From the NCBI GenBank assembly GCA_965116485.1, contig OZ220692.1, positions 1,627,152 through 1,691,151 of the forward strand: a stretch of 64,000 bases of DNA, given 5' to 3'. Positions 25,095 to 64,000 of the stretch are shown piece by piece. This stretch comes from Acidimicrobiales bacterium. Lineage in GTDB: Bacteria > Actinomycetota > Acidimicrobiia > Acidimicrobiales > Aldehydirespiratoraceae. Positions within the stretch are counted from its first letter, which is position 1; the number at the start of each line of letters is the position of its first letter. Both the position numbers and the translations under genes were made by a program. Under the pieces are notes generated by a model that saw nothing but the letters and a program-made list of their open reading frames with translations, was not told the DNA's origin and did not search any database.

Positions 25095-26069
25095 ATGGGT
25101 GGGGACAACACTCGCTGGTCTGATAGGAGCGCAGGTGTGCCGTTAGAAAACGTCGCCCACCGTGATGTTCAGTATGCGAACGCCTACTTGGCGTCTTTGG
25201 CCGCCGGACCGTCGAGATCCACCACGGAGTCAGCGTTGCGGGTCGTCGCCAGAGACTTCTTCGGGTGCGAGCCTGATGAGATGCCTTGGACGGCATTACG
25301 AGCCGAGGATGTCGGGTGGCTGCGGGCGCAGCTGGCCGAACGCCGAGCCCCTGCAACGGCCAACAAGTTGCTCGCCGCGGTCCGCGGTGTGCTTCTGGCC
25401 GCGTGGCGTAGTAACGCAATCGATACCGACACTTACCACCGCACGATCGATGCCGCCAAATCGGTGAAAGGCAGCCGATTGCCTGCTGGGCGAGCGCTCA
25501 CCCCCGACGAGGTTCAACGCTTGTTTGCCGACTGCAATGATGGAACCCACTCGGGGTTGAGAGACGCAGCGGCCTTAGCTTTGATGCTCGGGTGCGGGTT
25601 GCGACGTTCCGAAACGGTCGCGATCGACATGGCCGATCTGGACCTCCCCAACGCTGAGACCGAAGTCCTCGGTAAGGGCAACAAGGAGAGAACCGCTTAC
25701 CCCCCATCAGGAACCCTCCACGCGGTGACCGCTTGGGTAGCGGCTCGGGGCGATGTGGACGGTCCGATGCTGTGCCCCGTCCTGGTCTCGGGTCGGATCA
25801 TCGCTGGTCGCGGAATCTCTACGACAGCGATCGCTCAACGCTTGGAGAAGCGTTGCTTTAGCGCAGGGATCGCCCGATGCACGCCACACGACCTTCGGCG
25901 TACTTTCGTCTCTGGATCGCTTGACGCTGGACTAGATCTGGCGGTGGTCCAACGGCTCGCCGGTCATGCGTCTCCGGCGACCACGGCCGTCTACGATCGT
26001 CGCGGCGAACGAGCCGCGAGACAAGCCGTAGCGAAGCTGATCCTCCCAACGGGAGACCTTCTGCTGTAG
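25095..26069 (+). CDS. Tyrosine-type site-specific recombinase/integrase
   Basis: GLRRSE (Arg), HDLRRTF (His-x-x-Arg), and LAGHASPATTAVY (His, Tyr nucleophile). It heads the accessory region. Confidence 0.85.
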   Translation: MGGDNTRWSDRSAGVPLENVAHRDVQYANAYLASLAAGPSRSTTESALRVVARDFFGCEPDEMPWTALRAEDVGWLRAQLAERRAPATANKLLAAVRGVLLAAWRSNAIDTDTYHRTIDAAKSVKGSRLPAGRALTPDEVQRLFADCNDGTHSGLRDAAALALMLGCGLRRSETVAIDMADLDLPNAETEVLGKGNKERTAYPPSGTLHAVTAWVAARGDVDGPMLCPVLVSGRIIAGRGISTTAIAQRLEKRCFSAGIARCTPHDLRRTFVSGSLDAGLDLAVVQRLAGHASPATTAVYDRRGERAARQAVAKLILPTGDLLL

Positions 26070-26253
26070 CACCCTGAGTGGCCCTTAGCGCTACCAACAG
26101 CGCTACCACCCAGTCCGTCCACGACGTCAGCGTGGTCTGCTCATCTGTTGGGTGCTGCGACCTCGCTGCGCGCAACCACCAACGGGTTTAAGCGTCCAAC
26201 AGGATTTTGGCGGCGCGGTGCGCCAAGCGAAGGTTGAGTGGGGATCCCAATCC

Positions 26254-26311
26254 ACCACTGCTTGCGATAATTACCGTTATCTACCACTGCTTGCGATAAT
26301 TACCGTTATCT
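26254..26311. repeat. 29-bp direct repeat x2, each containing the 16-bp palindrome GATAATTACCGTTATC
   Basis: accactgcttgcgataattaccgttatct occurs at 26254-26282 and 26283-26311, with palindromes at 26266-26281 and 26295-26310. Confidence 0.85.
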
Positions 26312-26683: not shown

Positions 26684-29600
26684 ATGCAACGCCACGCCGA
26701 TTCCACAGCTTTTTGTCTGCGCTCACTAGCTACCAGGCTGGGTCGATCCCGCCGTGTCCTCAGGGGTGTGGCGCTGATGTTGATCTTCGCGTCAGCAGCG
26801 TACGGACTTACGGCCGTGCCCCCAGTGTCGATGCCACAGGCGGCAGCCGACGACCAAACCGAGACATATCAAGAACGGGTTGCGCCGTTCACTCAAACCG
26901 ACCGCGTCAGGGTAGCGCCGTTCACTGAGACTTACCAAGAGCGCGTCCCGCCATACACCCAAACCGTCCGCGTCAGGGTTGCGCCGTTCACCGAGTCCTA
27001 CCAGGTACGTGTCGCACCGTTCACCGAGAGCTATCGGGTGCGTGTCGCGCCGCTCACCGAAACCTATCGCGTCAGGGTTGCGCCGTTCACTCAAACCGAC
27101 CGCGTCAGGGTAGCGCCGTTCACTGAGACTTACCAAGAGCGCGTCCCGCCATACACCCAAACCGTCCGCGTCAGGGTTGCGCCGTTCACCGAGTCCTACC
27201 AGGTACGTGTCGCGCCGTTCACCGAGAGCTATCGCGTGCGTGTCGCGCCGTACACTCGAAGCGTGGCTGCATACAACTACGAAACGGTGTGTCCTCCCTG
27301 TCGTCAGGTTCGGGTAGCGCCGTTCACGCGAACCGTGGCTGTCTACAACTACGAAAACCGCACTCGAAATGTTTACAACTACGCGAACCGCACGCGAGCC
27401 GTCTTCAACTACGAAAACCGCACGCGAAATGTTTACAACTACGCGAACCGCACGCGAGCCGTCTTCAACTATGCGGACCGCACCCGAGATGTCTACAACT
27501 GGGAGAACCGAACGCGAGCTGTCTACAACTATGAGAATCGCTCCCGACCCGTTTGGAACTACGAAACCCGCACCCGATCAGTAGTCAACTACGAAAACCG
27601 CGTGCAAGACTTTTTTCACTATGCGGAACGCACGCGAGATGTCTTCAACTATGCGGAACGCACCCGAGATGTCTACAACTGGGAGACAAGGACTCGCAGT
27701 GTCTCCCACACTCATACCTGCCCCGCGGGCCAGCAGCTCGAGGGCCATGCCACCTGCGTACCAACGACCACCACGACGACGACAACGACGACAACGACTA
27801 CAGCACCACCACCCCCTAGACCTGTGGTTTCGATTACCGCTCACCCATCTGTCACCGAGGGAGCCCGCGCGTTGTTCACGGTCAGTGCTGCGCTTGCACC
27901 ATCAGAGACGCTCACGGTCACTGTGGCGGTGGCCGGAGGTGGTTACGCGTCGACTGGTACGCGTTCTGTGACATTGCAGGGTTCCTCATCATTCCCTCCC
28001 GGTCTTGCTACCGGCTTGCTGTCAGTGGCTACCGTCGATGACACGCTAGACGAGCCCGACGGAACGGTTACCGCAACAATCACAGCCGGCGCCGGCTACA
28101 CCGTTTCCGCCTCAGCGCGCTCGGCTGCCGTGACAGTCAAAGACAACGATTTGTCTGCTAGGGAGAGATGCGAGGCCGACGGAGGAACTTGGACTCCGCC
28201 GCTGGTTGACCCCTGCGTGAAACCTACGGTGTCGATCACTGGCCCCGCAGCGCCCGTCACAGAAGGCGCTGCGGTTCATTTCACTGTCACTGTTTCTCCA
28301 GCGCCTGCGTATTCGCTTGACGTTTCGGTGGCTGTGTCGTCTGTCGGCGGCTACGCGGCGTCTAATACTCGAACGGTGACGGTGCCCACCAGCGGAACCG
28401 CTGCTTTCACTGTCGCTACACTCAACGACACCGTGGATGAACCCGACGGTTCGGTAACTGCGACTATTGGAGCCAGTAGCCGCTACACTGGAGGCGGCGC
28501 CTCAGCAACCGTCGCGGTGCGAGACGACGACGCGACGCCTACTCAGGGGGATTGCCCCAGCGGCTACTACGAACTCGTCGATCCGTTGCCGACGGCCTGG
28601 ATTGATCTGTTCAACAGCGAAGTTAGTTTCGACCAAGCCACAGGGTTGCACCCTGAGCCCGTTGTGTGGGTGCCGCAGCGAAGTATCCCGCGGACACAAG
28701 ACCGGGGCTGTTACATGGCTCGTTTCGAAGTCACCGACGTGGGAGCGGTAAACGAGAACGAACTGAAAGAAGCGGCAACAGCCGCGTTAGTGGTCGGCTC
28801 ACAAGCATACAACGTGATCTGCGATCCCGTTGCAACGGTTACGGCAGAGTTGGGGCTCAGAAGAGCGGAGAAGTCTAAGGCTGTCGCCAGGATCGCTACG
28901 AGGCTGGGCACTACCAGCGCCAAAATCGTGCAGCGGGCTTCGATCGTGTTGAATGTTGTGTGTCTGCCAGCCACCATACAAGACGTGCTCAGCGTGTTGA
29001 GATGGATCGACGGGCTGTTCTCAACACCGCCGAAGCCGCTGTGCCCGGACCCTCCGACGGGGTTGGCTCTAGTCGGCACCGATGGGGCGATACAGGTGTC
29101 GTGGACACCCCCAACCAACGCGCCTGAAACAGAGGCCGACGAACACGGCGAGCACAGATACACTGTCTATTGGGGGGAAGGTGCGAGTTCGCTGGGTGCT
29201 CCGATCACGGGAATCAAGACCATCTGGCGTTCAGGGCCTCGAGCGGCGCACACAATTGCAGCAACAAATGGGCACGAATACTGGGTTCAAGTCTTCTGGG
29301 GCACGAAACTCGGATGCGAAGGGCAAGCACCAGTGGTAGAGGGAACAGTCACGCCAATCGCCGCTCCAAGCGCTCCACGCGGTCTGGTTCTCCTGCCTTC
29401 GGAAGGGCAGATACGGGTTTCATGGCAAGCAGCGCCGCATACCAGCGCGGCGCCCGTCGAGGGGTACCAAGTTTCGTGGAGCGACAGCGGAGGTCGTATC
29501 GACAGCGCTCGCGTGCTGCGAGGTGTCACAACGCACACGATCGGGGGCCTCACCAACGGGAGGACCTATCACGTCAGCGTGTCCGCGCACAATGTCTCGG

Positions 29601-30547
29601 GCCCCTCGGCTGCAGTATCCTACACAACAATCCCAATCACTGCTCCTAGTGCGCCGACCGGTCTGGTCCTTACACCTGCTGGAGGGCAGATACGGGTTTC
29701 GTGGCAGCCGGCGCCGCACAGCAGCGCGGCGCCCGTCGAGAGGTACAAAATTTCGTGGAGCGAAATCATCGGACCCGATGGCCAGGACGTTCACCTGCAT
29801 CAAGATGCCAGAGAGTATACGATCGAGGGCCTTGCCAACGGGAGGGTCTACAGCGTCGAAGTACACGCGTACAATAGGTTAGGCAACTCGACTGCCATTG
29901 GCGGCAGAGCAATCCCCAGGGTCGCTGCTCCTAGTGCGCCGACCGGTTTGGTCCTTACACCTGCTGGAGGGCAGATACGGGTTTCGTGGCAGCCGGCGCC
30001 GCACAGCAGCGCGGCGCCCGTCGAGGGATACGACATAACGTGGAGCGACAGCACAGGCCATATCGACAGCGCTAGCGTGCTGCGAGGTGTCACAACGCAC
30101 ACGATCGAGGGCCTTACCAACGGGAGCGCCTACAGCGTCGAAGTAAACGCGTACAATACCGATGATTTGGACCGTATATCATACTCGACTGTCATTAGCG
30201 GCACGGCAACCCCGGTCGTCGTTCCTAGTGCGCCGACCGGTATGGTCCTTACGCCTGCTGAAGGGCAGATGCGGGTTTCGTGGCAGCCAGCGCCGCACAG
30301 CAGCGAGGCGCCCGTCGAGGGATATTATATCAGCTGGTACACCGGCACCGGCGCAGGCGCACAACCCAGCGCTCTCACACCGCGAGGCCAAACGACATAC
30401 ACGATCACGGGCCTTACCAACGGGAGCGCCTACAGCGTCTTCGTGTACGCTGTCAATGCCGCAGGCAAATCGGCTCACATCTGGGGCAAAGCAACCCCTA
30501 GGGCAGCGACACCGACCGCCGCGACTCACCCCCGTCGCCTACGCTGA
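26684..30547 (+). CDS. Giant secreted repeat protein (novel 11-aa and 10-aa repeats, 2 Calx-beta-like modules, unknown Cys module, 5 FN3-like modules)
   Basis: ATG at 26684. RSRRVLRG plus a hydrophobic stretch resembles a Tat/Sec signal. Then about 13 x (xYxVRVAPFTE), about 12 x (VYNYENRTRx), and a poly-Thr/Pro linker. TVDDTLDEPDG and TLNDTVDEPDG are Calx-beta signatures. Repeated APSAPTGLVLTPAGGQIRVSWQP marks the FN3 starts. Confidence 0.8.
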   Translation: MQRHADSTAFCLRSLATRLGRSRRVLRGVALMLIFASAAYGLTAVPPVSMPQAAADDQTETYQERVAPFTQTDRVRVAPFTETYQERVPPYTQTVRVRVAPFTESYQVRVAPFTESYRVRVAPLTETYRVRVAPFTQTDRVRVAPFTETYQERVPPYTQTVRVRVAPFTESYQVRVAPFTESYRVRVAPYTRSVAAYNYETVCPPCRQVRVAPFTRTVAVYNYENRTRNVYNYANRTRAVFNYENRTRNVYNYANRTRAVFNYADRTRDVYNWENRTRAVYNYENRSRPVWNYETRTRSVVNYENRVQDFFHYAERTRDVFNYAERTRDVYNWETRTRSVSHTHTCPAGQQLEGHATCVPTTTTTTTTTTTTTAPPPPRPVVSITAHPSVTEGARALFTVSAALAPSETLTVTVAVAGGGYASTGTRSVTLQGSSSFPPGLATGLLSVATVDDTLDEPDGTVTATITAGAGYTVSASARSAAVTVKDNDLSARERCEADGGTWTPPLVDPCVKPTVSITGPAAPVTEGAAVHFTVTVSPAPAYSLDVSVAVSSVGGYAASNTRTVTVPTSGTAAFTVATLNDTVDEPDGSVTATIGASSRYTGGGASATVAVRDDDATPTQGDCPSGYYELVDPLPTAWIDLFNSEVSFDQATGLHPEPVVWVPQRSIPRTQDRGCYMARFEVTDVGAVNENELKEAATAALVVGSQAYNVICDPVATVTAELGLRRAEKSKAVARIATRLGTTSAKIVQRASIVLNVVCLPATIQDVLSVLRWIDGLFSTPPKPLCPDPPTGLALVGTDGAIQVSWTPPTNAPETEADEHGEHRYTVYWGEGASSLGAPITGIKTIWRSGPRAAHTIAATNGHEYWVQVFWGTKLGCEGQAPVVEGTVTPIAAPSAPRGLVLLPSEGQIRVSWQAAPHTSAAPVEGYQVSWSDSGGRIDSARVLRGVTTHTIGGLTNGRTYHVSVSAHNVSGPSAAVSYTTIPITAPSAPTGLVLTPAGGQIRVSWQPAPHSSAAPVERYKISWSEIIGPDGQDVHLHQDAREYTIEGLANGRVYSVEVHAYNRLGNSTAIGGRAIPRVAAPSAPTGLVLTPAGGQIRVSWQPAPHSSAAPVEGYDITWSDSTGHIDSASVLRGVTTHTIEGLTNGSAYSVEVNAYNTDDLDRISYSTVISGTATPVVVPSAPTGMVLTPAEGQMRVSWQPAPHSSEAPVEGYYISWYTGTGAGAQPSALTPRGQTTYTITGLTNGSAYSVFVYAVNAAGKSAHIWGKATPRAATPTAATHPRRLR
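26864..27258 (+). repeat. 33-bp (11-codon) coding repeat array, including a 198-bp near-perfect tandem duplication
   Basis: TYQERVAPFTQ / TDRVRVAPFTE / SYQVRVAPFTE and similar. The DNA at 26884-27053 recurs at 27082-27251. Confidence 0.9.
27259..27706 (+). repeat. 30-bp (10-codon) coding repeat array
   Basis: VYNYENRTRN VYNYANRTRA VFNYENRTRN ... VYNWETRTRS. Confidence 0.9.
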
Positions 30548-30620
30548 ACTACACAACCAACGACACCCGTAACAACTGTACCCACCAACTTGTCCCCGTC
30601 ACAGTAAGGATGACAAACCA

Positions 30621-30944
30621 ATGGCATCTACGGAAACGACCGATGTGCCCGCACGGAACGGACCGGTAGACGAAAGACCACGTCTGTTCTCTGTTGATGT
30701 TCTGACCTCGGGCTACCTTTTTGGTTTGCCCTTGCTGGTGTGGGTTTGGATAGCCGTGACTCAGTCCCCTCTGCGGAACGCCATATCGCTGGGGTTGTAC
30801 GTCGTCTGGGTGTTCGGCGATCTGGTGATATATCGACTCAGACACCGTGCTATGCCTCCCCGGCCAACATGGGGCAAACACAACCGCTGGACAGTCCCGC
30901 TTCTCTTCCTTGTCTTGATCGTGGGGGCGATCCAAGGTGTTTAA
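30621..30944 (+). CDS. Small 3-TM membrane protein, paralog 1
   Basis: 107 aa with the ERPRLFSVDVL ... PRPTWGKHNRWTVPLLF motif. AAGGA lies upstream of the ATG. The stop overlaps the next ATG (TAATG). Confidence 0.7.
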   Translation: MASTETTDVPARNGPVDERPRLFSVDVLTSGYLFGLPLLVWVWIAVTQSPLRNAISLGLYVVWVFGDLVIYRLRHRAMPPRPTWGKHNRWTVPLLFLVLIVGAIQGV

Positions 30945-31216
30945 TGGCACAATCAGAAATAACCGAAGTAGCTGACACTGAGACGTATCGGGTGCGGGTT
31001 GCTCCATACACCCGAACCGTGGCCGCCTACAACTACGAGACCCGGTCCCGAGCCGTCTTCAACTATGAAACCCGTTCTCGACCCGTATGGAACTATGAGA
31101 ACCGTACCCGGCCAGTAGTTAATTACGAGCCCCGGTCCCGAGCCGTCTTCAACTACGAAACTCGTTCTCGACCCGTATGGAACTATGAGAACCGTACCCG
31201 GCCAGTAGTCAATTAC
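30944..31216 (+). pseudogene. Second YNYE-repeat protein gene, 5' part, interrupted by ISL3 ends
   Basis: MAQSEITEVADTETYRVRVAPYTRTVAAYNYETRSRAVFNYETRSRPVWNYENRTRPVVNY, followed by an IS inverted repeat. There is no signal peptide. Confidence 0.65.
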
Positions 31217-31284
31217 GGGTTCTTCGCGTTTCAGGGGGGAGTGAGGGTGTTGAGTAGCGCCCGGTTGGGCTTCTATGTCAATGT
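31217..31284. mobile_element. Solo ISL3-type terminal repeat copy
   Basis: gggttcttcgcgtttcaggggggagtgagggtgttgagtag... is a 68-bp duplicate of the left end of the adjacent IS. Confidence 0.6.
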
Positions 31285-32702
31285 GGCTCTTCGCGTATTA
31301 GGTCGGAGTGAGGGTGTTGAGTAGGTTCCAGTTGGGCTTGCCGGCATACAGGAGTGCTCTGATCCGGTAATTGGTGAAGTCAGTGAAATGCGAACCCGAC
31401 GCGTTTGACTCGTTTGATCAGATTGTCAGCGGCTCGGTGGCTGTGTTGGACACCCGGGCGTGGTGCCAGTCAGCAGTTCTGGGTGCTCCAACGAGCCAGG
31501 GTGCGTCCCAACCGGTTGACCTCGACAGGCAGAAACGAGTCTTGGAACTCGACGGCGAGCTGATCGACGGTCACGCGTCCGAGGTCGGGATCGGCGATGT
31601 CATATATCCCGCGCAGGGTCTCTTTGGCGTGCCAGGCGTTGCGGACCTCGCCGTGGGGGTCACCGGATTCGAGCAGGCCGCGTAGACGGCCGTCGCCTGT
31701 TTCGCTGATGCGTTCGTGACCGGTGAGCAGCAGTTTGCGGCTTCGATACAGCGGGTCGTGTTTGCGGCCCCGGTGCCCGAGGGTCTGGTTCTGCACCCGC
31801 CGTCGCACCTCGTCGAGTGTGTTGTCAGCTTGCCGCACGACGTGGAACGGGTCCGCGACCTGGGCTGCGTCATCCAGCGCCGTGTCCAGCGTCGCCCTAT
31901 ACGGTCCAAAGAGGTCCAGGGTCGCCCAACGAATGTGTACCCGCCAGCTCGCCGGTTGGTTGAGCAGCCACCTCGCCGGTGCTGTGGCTGTTCTGTGAGG
32001 CACTATGTCCAACAGTTTGCCGCCGGCGACATCGACGATGCTGGTCGCCCACGCCTTGTGTCTATAACGGCCGGTGCGGCCGAACAGAGTTTCGTCGAGA
32101 CCCACAGCGGTCGTCGCGCCGATCCGGTCGACATCAGCATCGAGCAGCGTTTGACCCCACCACAGCACCGTGTCGTTCACCGCCGACCAGCAACACGCCA
32201 AGTCCGAAGCAACATCGCTCACCGGACGGCCACAGCCGACCTGGCGTGTCGCCCAACGCGCTGCTCGTGTCGTCAACAACACCCGCGGCGGCGCGACCTA
32301 GTGGTTGTGTTCAGTCACCGACCCCGTGCCGCAATCCTCACTCGGGCAACGCCACCGGTGTTTGTGCCACACCAACCTCGCCGGCCGGCCGAAGCTCGGC
32401 AGATCCACCAGCTCCACCAGCCGCTTGCCGTCGGACCACAACTTGCCGCCACAACCCGCACACGACGGACGCGGTGCCCGACATCGGACATGCAACCTCA
32501 ACGGCTCGCCGCCACGGTCGTCGTCGACGCTCAACACGTCGACTTCGCCGAGGCCCACCAACAACTCGCACATGCGTATAGGGTCGTGCTCCACCGGGAT
32601 CCTCCAGTCTTGGATTGGTTTACGACCCCGATTCTGGAGGATCCCGCTCAACCAACCGCGGACACCCCACAACCCCGACTCCGACCTCAAACGCGAAGAG
32701 CC
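31285..32702 (-). mobile_element. ISL3-family insertion sequence with a degraded transposase
   Basis: The ends are ggctcttcgcg... and ...cgcgaagagcc. The transposase N-terminus has a zinc finger (CAGCGG...CPSEDC). There is an in-frame TAG at 32298-32300. The C-terminal part (VSNTATEPLTI*...YRIRALLYAGKPNW) carries a stop and a frameshift. Confidence 0.8.
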
Positions 32703-32723: not shown

Positions 32724-33023
32724 CTTACGCTGGCGGCATTGGTCGATGCAATTGCAGTAAGAAGGCGGGCTGGACAATCCGAGCGGTCGGGTTCCAACTT
32801 CTCAATCGCTATCGGGGGGAGCTCTCAAGCGAATGGCTATGCTAGAATTACCGCGAACGAACGCGTTTTCCTCGCGGTGACCTCACGCCCTCCCCAACCC
32901 ATAGTAGGGTGCCTGCCCCCCAGATACACGACCCGCAACTCGACACTCGACCGACAGACATCCACCACCGGAAACCACACAACACACCGGGACATCACAA
33001 TCCATTATTGTGAAAGGAGTTAA
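32724..33023 (+). CDS. Cassette 1 conserved coding segment X1 (no start codon of its own; ...TTGNHTTHRDITIHYCERS)
   Basis: It is colinear with X2 over 100 codons. In the 3' 64 codons I counted 21 synonymous against 12 non-synonymous differences. Confidence 0.5.
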   Translation, partial: LTLAALVDAIAVRRRAGQSERSGSNFSIAIGGSSQANGYARITANERVFLAVTSRPPQPIVGCLPPRYTTRNSTLDRQTSTTGNHTTHRDITIHYCERS

Positions 33024-33394: not shown

Positions 33395-33694
33395 CTTACG
33401 CTAGGGGCACTGGTTGACGCCCTCAAAGGAAGAAGGCAAAGTAACCAGAGTTCACATGAGTCATCTAACTTCTCCATCGGCGTGGCGGGGGGAGCGCAAG
33501 CGAATGGGTATGCTAGGGTAACGGACACCGAGCGTGTGTTCTTCGCAGTGACCGCGTTTCCCCCGCGTCCCATCGTGGGGTGCCTGCCGACCAGATACAC
33601 GACCCGAACCTCGACACTTGACCGCCAGACATCTACCACCGGAAACCACACAACCCACCGAGACATCACCATCCACTATTGCCAGAAGGACTAA
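33395..33694 (+). CDS. Cassette 2 conserved coding segment X2 (orphan; ...TTGNHTTHRDITIHYCQKD)
   Basis: Same length and frame as X1. An in-frame TAG lies at 33338. There is no ATG, only an unsupported GTG at 33482. Confidence 0.45.
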   Translation, partial: LTLGALVDALKGRRQSNQSSHESSNFSIGVAGGAQANGYARVTDTERVFFAVTAFPPRPIVGCLPTRYTTRTSTLDRQTSTTGNHTTHRDITIHYCQKD

Positions 33695-34103: not shown

Positions 34104-34193
34104 ACACTCGACCGGATGACCTACACCACTGGAAACCACACAACCCACCGAGACATCACCATCCACTACTGCGACAACCTCCTGATACAGTAA
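34104..34193 (+). pseudogene. Cassette 3 segment X3, 5'-truncated (TLDRMTYTTGNHTTHRDITIHYCDNLLIQ)
   Basis: Only the last ~29 codons remain. Most differences from X2 are at third codon positions. Confidence 0.5.
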
Positions 34194-34517: not shown

Positions 34518-34727
34518 CCACTGTGTACATGCACCTGTGCACTGAAACTGATCTTCTGGGCAACAGTCTCGACAGTGAATCGCAAATATTCTTGTCCCGA
34601 ACTGTTGACTATTGTTGTGAGTTCTTCGCGTGTCGCACGGTCAGTTTTAACCAAGCCAGGGCTACACCCTGAGCCTGTTCTCTCGGTCTTCGCATTCTGC
34701 CGCGGGCTCGGTGAGCGCAAGGGCGTG

Positions 34728-35045
34728 CCTGCTGGAGGGCAGATACGGGTTTCGTGGCAGCCAGCGTCGCACAGCAGCGCGGTACCCGTCGAGGGATATT
34801 ATATCAGCTGGTATACTGGCACCGGCACAGGCGCACAACCCAGCGCTCTCACACCGCGAGGCCAAACGACATACACGATCACGGGCCTTACCAACGGGAG
34901 CGCCTACAGCGTCTTCGTGTACGCTGTCAATGCCGCAGGCAAATCGGCTCACATCTGGGGCAAAGCAACCCCTAGGGCAGCGACACCGACCGCCGCGACT
35001 TACCCCGTCGCCTACGCTGAACTACACAACCAACGACACCCGTAA
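34728..35045 (+). pseudogene. Orphan copy of the last FN3 module of the giant gene
   Basis: Aligns with 30254-30547. One C fewer in a C-run near 35010 changes the tail to ...ATYPVAYAELHNQRHP. A short patch at 34651-34682 also matches 28633-28665. Confidence 0.7.
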
Positions 35046-35093
35046 CAACTGTACCCACCAACTTGTCCCCGTCACAGTAAGGATGACAAACCA

Positions 35094-35417
35094 ATGGCAT
35101 CTACGGAAACGACCGATGTGCCCGCACAGAACAGACCGGCAGACGAAAGACCACGTCTGCTCTCTGTTGATGTTCTGACCTCGGGCTACCTCTTTGGCTT
35201 GCCCTTGCTGGTGTGGGTTTGGATAACTGCGACTCAATCCCCTCTGCGGAACGCCATAGCGCTGGGAGGTTACGTGGTCTGGGTTCTTGGTGATCTAGCG
35301 ATATATCGAATCAGGCACCGTGCGATGCCTCCCCGCCCGACATGGGGCAAACACAACCGCTGGACAGTCCCGCTGCTCTTCCTAGTCTTTATCATCCGAA
35401 CGGTTCAAGGCATCTAG
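35094..35417 (+). CDS. Small 3-TM membrane protein, paralog 2
   Basis: 107 aa, close copy of 30621-30944. Its last codons and stop are supplied by the IS481 target CTAG. Confidence 0.65.
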   Translation: MASTETTDVPAQNRPADERPRLLSVDVLTSGYLFGLPLLVWVWITATQSPLRNAIALGGYVVWVLGDLAIYRIRHRAMPPRPTWGKHNRWTVPLLFLVFIIRTVQGI

Positions 35418-35419
35418 TT

Positions 35420-35592
35420 GTAGTGGACATAGAGGTTGGTAGCTCCGCGATGGGGTGAGCCTCCTGTGCAAGTGTGGGGTTGTACGACAACCGACACGAA
35501 CAACAGGAGGCTCGTATGTCGCACGCTAACGCAAAGTTCACGCCCGCTGGGCGTTTGTTGATGGTTCGCCGGGTCGAGGCGGGGATGCCCCA
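35420..35592 (+). mobile_element. IS481-family 5' fragment (left IR plus the first ~25 transposase codons)
   Basis: tgtagtggacat... follows tCTAGt. AGGAGG precedes the ATG at 35516, which opens MSHANAKFTPAGRLLMVRRVEAGMP. Confidence 0.65.
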
Positions 35593-35875
35593 GAGTCTGG
35601 GTTTGCACCCGGCGGCGCACTTCGTCGAGTGTGTGGTTGGCGAGCCTGACGAAGTGGAACGGGTCCGCGACCTGGTGTGCGTGCGGCAGTGCTGTGTCCA
35701 AAGTGGCCCGATACGGCCCGGACGGGTCCCCCGCCGCCCAACGAATCCTGTCACGCCGACTCTGTGGTTGGTTCAGCAGCCACTGCGCGAGCCCAGCAGC
35801 GGTTCTGTCTGGCACTATGTCCAACAGTTTGCCGTCAGCGACGTCGACGATGCTGGTCGCCCACGCCCGTTTCTT
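35585..35875 (-). mobile_element. ISL3 transposase internal fragment
   Basis: KKRAWATSIVDVADGKLLDIVPDRTAAG...ADPFHFVRLANHTLDEVRRRVQTQTLGH is colinear with the transposase at 31470-32282. Confidence 0.7.
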
Positions 35876-35880
35876 GAACC

Positions 35881-36294
35881 GTCCGCTGCTACAACACCGC
35901 CGGTCAATCGACTGCAATACGCGGCACCGCAACCCCCAGACAACCAGCCACGACAACTACGACGACCACGACGGTTCCACCTCCGGTCGATCAGGCACCT
36001 TCACGGCCTGTGAACCTGGCAGTGACCTGTGCACCCGCTGCTCCCGGGTCGGTGCGTTTGGTCGTTACGTGGAACGCTCCAGATGCTTCGCCAATACCTA
36101 TTGAGTCATACCAGTACAACATAGGGGGCGTCCAGGGGTCGGTCCCGGCGGTCAAACCGATTCCCCAGATACAGGGGAACTTCTCAGTGTCCAAGACCGT
36201 CCCGCGCTCGAACGACCTCGTGCAGGTCTCCTCTCAGGGAGCGTCTCAACGCTCCGACTGGGTACAGACCCGCGCCGACTGCAGCGGTGTCTAG
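35881..36294 (+). pseudogene. 5'-truncated fragment of a paralogous FN3 surface-protein gene
   Basis: ...YNTAGQSTAIRGTATPRQPATTTTTTTTVPPPVDQAPSRPVNLAVTCAPAAPGSVRLVVTWNAP... has no start and is cut by the IS fragment. Confidence 0.6.
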
Positions 36295-62739: not shown

Positions 62740-63144
62740 GGTTACTCGCCTCGGTGGACGCTAGGTCTGATGAGCGCGTAGTGAGGCATCAACTGGCCGG
62801 TTCATCCGGTCAGCGTGCCTGGCACTCCGGTGTCGAGTGCTCCTTGAAAACGGAAGAGACGGACGCAAAGCGAGTGCGGGTGACGTTTTGGATTTCGCGA
62901 TCCGAAACGGCATCTGTCAATTTGAAACCGGGGTTCTCAACGGCCCCGGTGAGCCAGTCCGTCCAGCTCCAACTGGACGGGCGAACCTCTTCGATCACCG
63001 ATCGGTGAGCGGAGAGGAAACTGGTCACTGCAAGCCAGCGGTGGCCGGCTCTACGTAAACGCTGGGTGCCTCACGCGATCACTCCGTGTGATTGAGGCAT
63101 CCGCAAACCGATCTGAAGGCCGGCTCTGCTGGTCGAAAGATCTC

Positions 63145-64000
<856 letters not shown>

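Follow-up and report, generated by a model that had tools for sequence, protein, structure and literature searches.

Two short-repeat arrays of a secreted Acidimicrobiales protein, members of an undescribed repeat family, may fold back on each other about a cysteine loop

We analyzed a 64,000-nucleotide stretch of DNA (the window) from an Acidimicrobiales bacterium (contig OZ220692.1 of GenBank assembly GCA_965116485.1, positions 1,627,152 to 1,691,151 of the forward strand), and in it a gene coding for a secreted repeat protein of 1287 amino acids. We propose, with a probability of roughly 0.55, that the N-terminal 280 residues of this protein form a disulfide-capped, fold-back β-ribbon rod, in which each unit of one short repeat (A) is paired with a unit of another (B). 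The proposal draws on regularities shared by the relatives of the protein and on structure prediction.

The open reading frame extends from an ATG at 26684 to 30547 on the plus strand, as do all parts of the gene described below (window G+C content 63%). Its start methionine is common to homologue P0001, where MKRH.. aligns with MQRH... Read from the sequence, the signal peptide region (residues 1–55, 26684..26848) consists of an RSRRVLRG n-region (residues 21–28) and a hydrophobic core, with probable cleavage after PQAAA; the layout is the same in homologues P0001 and P0025, and RR is found in several relatives as well. The S-R-R-V-L-R of the window protein compares with S/T-R-R-x-F-L-K of twin-arginine translocation (Tat) signals, while Sec signals can carry RR too. 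The A array (residues 59–190, 26858..27253), the left arm of the proposed hairpin, contains 12 consecutive 11-residue units with the consensus T-E-T-Y-R-V-R-V-A-P-F and the pattern T[EQ][TS][YDV][RQ][VE]RV[AP]P[FYL]. The B array (residues 219–338, 27338..27697), the proposed right arm, contains 12 consecutive 10-residue units, x-V-Y-N-Y-E-N-R-T-R, with the pattern xV[YF]NY[EA][NT]R[T]R. Between them lies the tip (residues 191–218, 27254..27337), made of one B unit (VAAYNYETV), Cys203-Pro-Pro-Cys206, and one A unit (RQVRVAPFTRT); this B–Cys loop–A arrangement is shared with block-type and interleaved relatives (see below). The window protein thus has 13 A-type and 13 B-type units, arranged as 12+1 versus 1+12 about C-P-P-C. 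An earlier reading of this DNA made without database searches (the sequence-only reading) had reported about 13 11-mers and about 12 10-mers after an RSRRVLRG segment and a hydrophobic stretch; the signal, the coordinates, and the repeat content were all confirmed for the 26684–30547 frame.

At the DNA level, Tandem Repeats Finder reported 11.6 copies of a 33-bp period (score 248) and 11.4 copies of a 30-bp period (score 257), both well above chance, as well as a 198-bp higher-order duplication (98%, score 734). When shifted by six units, the A array is 94% and the B array 78% identical to itself. Several synonymous codons are in use for invariant residues (for Arg7, for example, CGG, AGG, CGC, and CGT), which indicates that selection acts on the peptide.

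Neither repeat was assigned to a family by Pfam or NCBIfam, where the fibronectin type III (FN3) domain alone scored above threshold. A search of PDB sequences gave no named family for either repeat, and a full-text literature search with motifs including RVRVAPF and YNYENRTR returned no relevant paper. The A and B repeats are therefore a real, undescribed repeat family, in agreement with the sequence-only reading, which had recognized neither. YD repeats of Rhs proteins, β-hairpin repeats with the consensus Y-x-Y-D..G-R-L, were taken up as a lead and rejected: no RHS/YD family was among the Pfam and NCBIfam matches at E ≤ 1, and arrays with A and B units in separate blocks cannot form local B–A hairpins.

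The A array, and not the B array, matched the apolipoprotein family PF01442 at 46.4 bits (47.3 bits for P0022, the closest full-length relative, at 54% identity), and in a phmmer search against PDB it matched ApoA-IV (5.6e-13) and ApoA-I (3e-10), with R-[VL]-x-P-[YF] every 11 residues in common. Such matches, together with the precomputed Pfam label 'Apolipoprotein' on P0022, could be taken to mean that the repeats form 11/22-residue amphipathic lipid-binding helices. However, the score is half of the gathering threshold of 90, and along the A array the hydrophobic moment falls to its minimum (0.13) at 100 degrees and peaks (0.47) at 130–170 degrees. The amphipathicity of the A array is β-type, not α-type. 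In addition, Thr, Val, and Tyr abound in the array, it was modeled as strands by AlphaFold2, and the A period is 9 or 10 residues in some relatives, which does not accord with an 11/3 helix. Since the moment is lowest at the α-helical angle and highest at β angles, we treat the match as a periodicity artefact, and the apolipoprotein identity was rejected; we regard lipid-binding helices of this kind as very improbable. What is shared with ApoA-I and ApoA-IV is an 11-residue period with Pro-aromatic punctuation, enough for sub-threshold matches to profile hidden Markov models; unlike them, the A array lacks α-type amphipathicity, belongs to a bacterial secreted protein, and is accompanied by a 10-residue array that has no apolipoprotein counterpart. 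The label on P0022 is likely a mis-annotation, and in general the 'Apolipoprotein' label that automated pipelines attach to such proteins arises artefactually from the 11-residue periodicity.

Among 5.8 billion proteins, a word-indexed search identified 21 relatives, and an exhaustive phmmer search of 1.84 billion representatives gave 175 matches, ca. 35–40 of which contain both conserved motifs (RVRVAPF[TS] for A and V[FY]NYExR for B), the others being unrelated proteins with 10/11-residue periods. None of the relatives has a name beyond 'hypothetical protein', and the ones whose origin could be assigned belong to sponge-associated Acidimicrobiales. The core motifs are strictly conserved among proteins of 40–60% identity and of differing architectures. 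Two properties of the window array emphasized by the sequence-only reading do not extend to the family. A strongly basic character is real in the window, where the array has 46 Arg, no Lys, a net charge of +18, and an isoelectric point of 10.0, but the net charge of the array ranges from −2 to +21 among relatives. Likewise, the N-R-[TS] sequon occurs in 7 of the 12 window B units, but N-x-S/T is present in only 16/250 B units family-wide.

Comparison of relatives revealed four layouts. The window protein has an A-block, a loop, and a B-block with periods of 11/10 residues. The second layout has the same order with periods of 9/8 and is usually followed by a metzincin-like domain. In the third, the order is reversed to B-block, loop, A-block (P0023, P0030, and P0034). 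In the fourth, the units are interleaved as (BA)n, loop, (BA)n, with a BA unit of 21 residues. In every layout a central Cys pair stands between the two arms (~35 relatives), and the numbers of units to the left and to the right of the loop are correlated (r = 0.83, n = 33); the array of P0002, a small member, has 4+1/1+4 units. Unit lengths co-vary as A = B + 1 (11/10 and 9/8), and 10/10 is found in a variant whose A unit (VRVPY) has no Ala before the Pro. Irregular units are mirrored as well. Both arms of P0007, P0010, P0162, and P0163 contain seven regular units, one degenerate 6-residue unit (the eighth from the loop), and three more regular units; both arms of P0013 have eight regular units, a short one (the ninth from the loop), and three regular ones; and in P0043 a degenerate stretch of ~45 residues occurs at equal distance from the loop on both arms. 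The short pair measures 6:6 residues and is devoid of Ala-Pro, which fits the idea that regular A units accommodate their additional residue as a bulge at Ala-Pro. An antiparallel fold-back is the sole arrangement that would bring A against B in A/B, B/A, and interleaved layouts alike, and fold-back A–B pairing is our preferred interpretation. The mirror complementarity of unit types within interleaved arrays (249/276) was not counted, because it is automatic for any alternating array. DNA palindromy as the cause of the mirror symmetry was excluded: the window has no inverted repeats, and the A array, when reverse-complemented, resembles the B array no more closely than shuffled sequences do, with the same outcome for the P0013 gene.

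The sequence-only reading had envisaged amphipathic β-strands in a solenoid or cross-β arrangement. The β-type character was supported; the solenoid and the stacking were not. A β-solenoid or β-roll of the kind known from RTX or pentapeptide repeats would place two units in each coil, amounting to 22 residues in the A array and 20 in the B array, and would give two stacked solenoids or one with a basic face. Polar and apolar residues do alternate in the repeats, double periods of 66 and 60 bp slightly outscore the single ones in Tandem Repeats Finder, and a unit of ~21 residues, as in interleaved relatives, is typical of solenoid coils. Yet a solenoid leaves unexplained the matched numbers of A and B units, the central Cys loop of every array, the reversed B-then-A order, and the mirrored short units. 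Moreover, the A+A and B+B coils of block-type arrays would differ in their core from the B+A coils of interleaved ones, and a solenoid was produced by neither of the two AlphaFold2 runs described below. We consider this fold unlikely.

AlphaFold2 was run on residues 52–362 of the window protein with 8 aligned sequences, and on interleaved relative P0012 with 10; the models were read from strand boundaries. For the window segment, a single hairpin was predicted, with strands 96–151 and 156–208 and a turn exactly at C-P-P-C. The predicted local distance difference test score (pLDDT) is 70–82 around the tip (about residues 180–230), reaching into the flanking A and B units, and outer strand fragments extend the mirror. 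In the case of P0012, every strand segment is mirrored about the loop (i + j = 273–277), including N-terminal segment 7–28 and C-terminal segment 245–270, and confidence is higher at the tip and at both ends. A global fold-back was predicted for this protein although local B–A hairpins would be possible.

According to the fold-back model, after export the chain would reverse direction at the Cys203-Pro-Pro-Cys206 loop, probably closed by a disulfide. The arm built of 11-residue A units would run antiparallel to the arm built of 10-residue B units, the two being zipped unit by unit into a two-stranded β-ribbon, with the additional A residue accommodated in a bulge at the conserved Ala-Pro. At about 10 residues each, thirteen pairs would make a thin rod up to about 40 nm long. 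Both the free N-terminus and the remaining part of the protein would be located at the rod base, and, since both array ends would lie there, the rod would be a projection rather than an in-line spacer. Judging from the AlphaFold2 strand boundaries, R-V-R-V opposite Y-N-Y-E would create one face of Arg/Tyr and another of Val/Asn/Glu.

The same A/B complementarity would also be expected of an intermolecular zipper, in which pairing takes place between the A arm of one chain and the B arm of a second, giving rise to fibers or sheets. In favor of such an assembly, a two-stranded ribbon on its own should be only marginally stable, and one of its faces would be apolar or aromatic. The conserved central Cys pair and the B–loop–A tip favor, in contrast, an intramolecular turn, and AlphaFold2 closes the hairpin within a single chain; pairing between molecules therefore appears rather improbable to us. 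We give similarly low odds to the view that the array is a low-complexity, largely disordered, and possibly glycosylated spacer without defined pairing. Its composition is very restricted (R, V, T, Y, A, E, N, and P account for 84% of residues), pLDDT is low across most of it, and a poly-Thr linker adjoins it. Against disorder stand the order-promoting nature of this composition (V, Y, F, W, and T), the strict maintenance of the core motifs in proteins as distant and as differently built as noted above, the symmetric arms, and the lack of conservation of the sequon.

Several observations weigh against the fold-back ribbon. The arms are unequal in P0006 (9:12), P0029 (9:11), and P0015 (truncated, 9:11); these sequences come from metagenome assemblies of arrays with higher-order repeats, and the inequality could be due to assembly collapse of such repeats. 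In the window, unit-by-unit charge complementarity between A and B is not significant (r = −0.17), and the recent six-unit duplication or conversion in the A array is not matched at equal recency by the B array. Overall AlphaFold2 confidence is low, with a mean pLDDT of 40 for the window and 36 for P0012 and a predicted template modeling (TM) score below 0.2, both from shallow alignments (8–10 sequences). A Foldseek search with the low-confidence model gave weak matches only (TM about 0.1), to long hairpins of aerolysin-type pores, and there is no solved precedent for a monomeric two-stranded ribbon with more than 100 residues per strand. Finally, the repeat-protein gene was found in no RNA run.

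The rod would serve as a structural appendage of secreted proteases and adhesin-like proteins. The partners of the repeat module (proteases, FN3/Ig-like modules, and a membrane-associated module), its terminal position, and the periodic Arg/Tyr/Asn surface suggest, with low certainty, that it may provide a periodic surface for binding or anchoring a polymer, such as the bacterium's own cell wall or glycans of the host matrix, or that it may associate laterally with itself.

Streptococcal antigen I/II proteins (SpaP, SspB, and BspA) have A and P arrays that flank a tip and pair lengthwise into a rod of tens of nm, so that the regions at the N- and C-terminus come together at its base (PMC7732690, citing Larson et al. 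2010 and Heim et al. 2014). The window protein is similar in possessing two distinct arrays about a tip, in their matched numbers (12+1 A and 1+12 B, with the family-wide correlation given above), and in its proposed fold-back logic. The antigen I/II stalk is composed of an α-helix and a polyproline-II helix, its tip is the globular adhesive V domain, and the protein is anchored through LPXTG. In contrast, the arms of the window protein and its family are predicted β-strands, the tip is a Cys loop of 2–12 residues (4 in the window), the units are 8–11 residues long, and there is no sortase signal: the window protein ends in ...THPRRLR, without LPXTG. The two groups have no sequence relationship. 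The evidence points to a specific and unusual fold-back β-ribbon whose logic, but neither its structure nor its sequence, would recall the antigen I/II stalk.

In periscope proteins and the stalks of fibrillar adhesins (SasG, Aap, and the SHIRT repeats of Sgo_0707), tandem repeats nearly identical at the DNA level build an elongated rod beside adhesive domains such as FN3 (PMC8201768, PMC8286594). Those repeats are independently folded domains of 80–130 residues, strung in a single direction, that keep the tip at a distance from the wall, whereas A and B units are too short for independent folding and the proposed rod would return to its origin. As regards the variation in repeat number between strains that marks periscope proteins and is driven by near-identical DNA repeats, the window has the 198-bp duplication (94–98%), and a form shorter by 60 bp (two units) appears in one low-depth contig of run X4 but may be an assembly collapse. 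The tandem β-zipper of fibronectin-binding proteins, in which short periodic peptide units pair with a second periodic partner by antiparallel strand addition (PMC4412574, PMC7343985), offers another parallel; there the partner is the F1 modules of host fibronectin and the bacterial repeats are disordered until bound, whereas here the partner array would be in the same chain. The stem hairpins of the aerolysin family, the only solved structures matched by Foldseek, are very long two-stranded β-hairpins. Unlike the window array, they have strands of 30–50 residues, occur only as part of an oligomeric barrel, and carry a membrane-facing apolar belt, and they show no sequence similarity to it.

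Somewhat more tentatively than the fold itself, at a little under even odds, we suggest that the family represents an undescribed architecture: complementary repeats mirrored about a disulfide loop and forming one hairpin of tens of nm, by far the longest known, with co-evolving A and B numbers and lengths. It would be a modular extracellular rod of sponge-associated bacteria, perhaps assembling into fibers or tubes via its apolar face. If real, the fold-back ribbon is a new way to build a long extracellular rod from very short repeats, where one chain with two repeat 'letters' and the pairing rule A = B + 1 residue is permuted into block, reversed, and interleaved layouts. This would be of interest for repeat-protein folding, the design of β-rich nanomaterials, and bacterial surface architecture. 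The repeats also provide a marker family for sponge-associated Acidimicrobiales, fused to proteases, FN3/Ig-like modules, and membrane-associated domains.

The window, which comes from a sponge-associated actinobacterium, encodes an ArgH that shares 95% identity with the ArgH of 'Acidimicrobiaceae bacterium' metagenome-assembled genomes, and its sequence is present in runs labeled sponge metagenome. When GTDB species genomes were scanned with a hand-made DNA pattern, 5 of the 98 matched stretches were true loci, and true members occurred in Acidimicrobiales only, including Candidatus Poriferisocius (two loci) and Candidatus Aldehydirespirator. A relative with a subtilase domain is encoded on a contig of 40% G+C, and the repeat module is thus not strictly confined to Acidimicrobiales. 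Scanning genomes with peptides taken from the window itself yielded no match, and metagenome scans with two patterns gave zero matches for one and saturation by unrelated NYE-coding repeats for the other. Many contigs of JGI metagenomes Ga0185317 and Ga0114941 (L103–L222) match three spaced N-Y-E codon triplets; they have no RVAPF motif, do not encode the family, and contain an unrelated repeat.

Directly after the arrays of the window protein, at what would be the base of the rod, is the motif SVSHTHTCPAGQQLEGHATC (residues 339–358, 27698..27757), comprising an H-x-H element and a small two-Cys module with the motif SHTHTCPAGQQLEGHATC. Its conserved form in P0024, P0025, and L045 is [H]xHxCPxGQ..GHxxC; interleaved relatives have it as HDPSEHTCPxGQ. 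In one subgroup (P0024-26, P0033, P0035, and L045), H-x-H follows the array immediately, as SHTHT, AHSHP, PHTHP, or EHIHP (27698–27712 in the window), while in another the array is followed by HDPSEHTCPxGQ and the mature N-terminus starts with (A)HD. In a fold-back structure these His-rich ends would meet at the base and possibly make up a candidate metal site. Two paralogues of Candidatus Poriferisocius sp. NZ_OZ241977.1 (L045 1794–5117 and L032) have, after the array, several tandem Cys-rich mini-modules of ~60 residues; each copy ends in ECxTGTELQGHSDCVP, the counterpart of the window motif CPAGQQLEGHATCVP.

The sequence-only reading had listed further downstream a Thr/Pro linker, two Calx-β-like modules, a Cys-containing module, and FN3 domains; these were confirmed, although the Calx-β assignment is weakly supported. 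The linker (27758..27823) contains a run of 13 Thr together with Pro. Two Ig-like modules of ~105 residues each (27824..28534) are weakly Calx-β/LapA-like: the first scored 14 bits with Calx-β (PF03160; E = 0.053, gathering threshold 27) and E = 0.014 with LapA, likewise below the cut-off, and the second had no match to the Pfam Calx-β model. A true Calx-β domain (53 bits) is present in P0022, and P0035 contains a module similar to the Ig-like ones of the window. The Cys-containing module (~175 residues, 28535..29065) begins with DCPSGYYELVDPLPTAW and has no Pfam or PDB match. Its first ~40–85 residues resemble the module located directly after the array in interleaved relatives; the match with P0018 had E = 1.8e-6 in a search of 34 sequences, and the family profile scored 9.9 bits. 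Five FN3 domains (29066..30499; PF00041, 156.8 bits, E = 1.6e-46, four stretches above threshold) complete the protein, and this region shows a 282-bp tandem periodicity.

The gene is followed on the plus strand by a gene for a small membrane protein of 107 residues (30621..30944) that has no Pfam match and is duplicated at 35094–35417. The duplication is direct (93–96% identity); 30253–30829 recurs at 34727–35302, a block that comprises the final FN3 domain with the stop codon and the membrane-protein gene. Small proteins with two transmembrane segments also follow family genes in L001 and L003, with no detectable similarity to that of the window. The repeats recur at 30944..31230 (plus strand), which the sequence-only reading had taken for the start of a second repeat-protein gene. 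What is encoded there is a right-arm fragment of a paralogue, with one A unit and about eight B units, lacking the signal peptide, the left arm, and the Cys loop. It is cut by an insertion sequence (IS), as truncation occurs where read depth rises to the IS level. The IS (31078–32679) carries an ISL3-like transposase frame on the minus strand (31470–32282), and a second, diverged copy (78% identity) lies at 35586–35867, within the region 35350–35883. Because its read depth was 23–35 times that of the flanking DNA in three DNA runs, the IS is estimated at about 25–35 copies per genome. Patchy run X4 was considered as expression data and rejected; its IS-to-gene depth ratio equals that of the DNA runs, which identifies it as low-coverage DNA. 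Three direct copies with 85% identity (32943–33016, 33614–33687, and 34104–34177) code for an end '...TGNHTTHRDITIHYC', as do the C-termini of P0024, P0033, P0035, and L045, and are remnants of several paralogues in a row. Considering the fragment cut by the IS, the three C-terminal remnants, and the duplicated block of FN3 end and membrane-protein gene, the region is a decaying paralogue cluster.

The repeat-protein gene itself is intact, and three samples dating from 2015 to 2025 carry it in nearly identical form. Run X3, a sponge metagenome from 2015, differs by F310V (at 27611), which restores the consensus Val of a B unit, by a 9-bp insertion at 27775 that adds three Thr to the linker, and by a 1-bp deletion at 30529, 18 nt before the stop codon. 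Five loci of the family share no conserved neighbors. A tyrosine recombinase gene (PF00589) is immediately upstream of the family gene both in the window (25095–26069) and at the P0008 locus (L001, 6511–7617), but the encoded enzymes lack similarity to each other. In the window, a gap of 600 bp separates the integrase gene from that of the repeat protein and includes 2.1 copies of a 29-bp tandem repeat, ATCTACCACTGCTTGCGATAATTACCGTT (26250–26311, 96% identity). L001 also contains an inverted partial copy of the C-terminal half of its family gene. The three genes after P0022 (L223, 9196–13366) code for products with pilin-like hydrophobic N-termini. At the far end of the window, 63143–64000 covers the 5′ part (857 nt) of a gene for bacterial 16S rRNA (Rfam RF00177, 851 bits), which runs off the window end.

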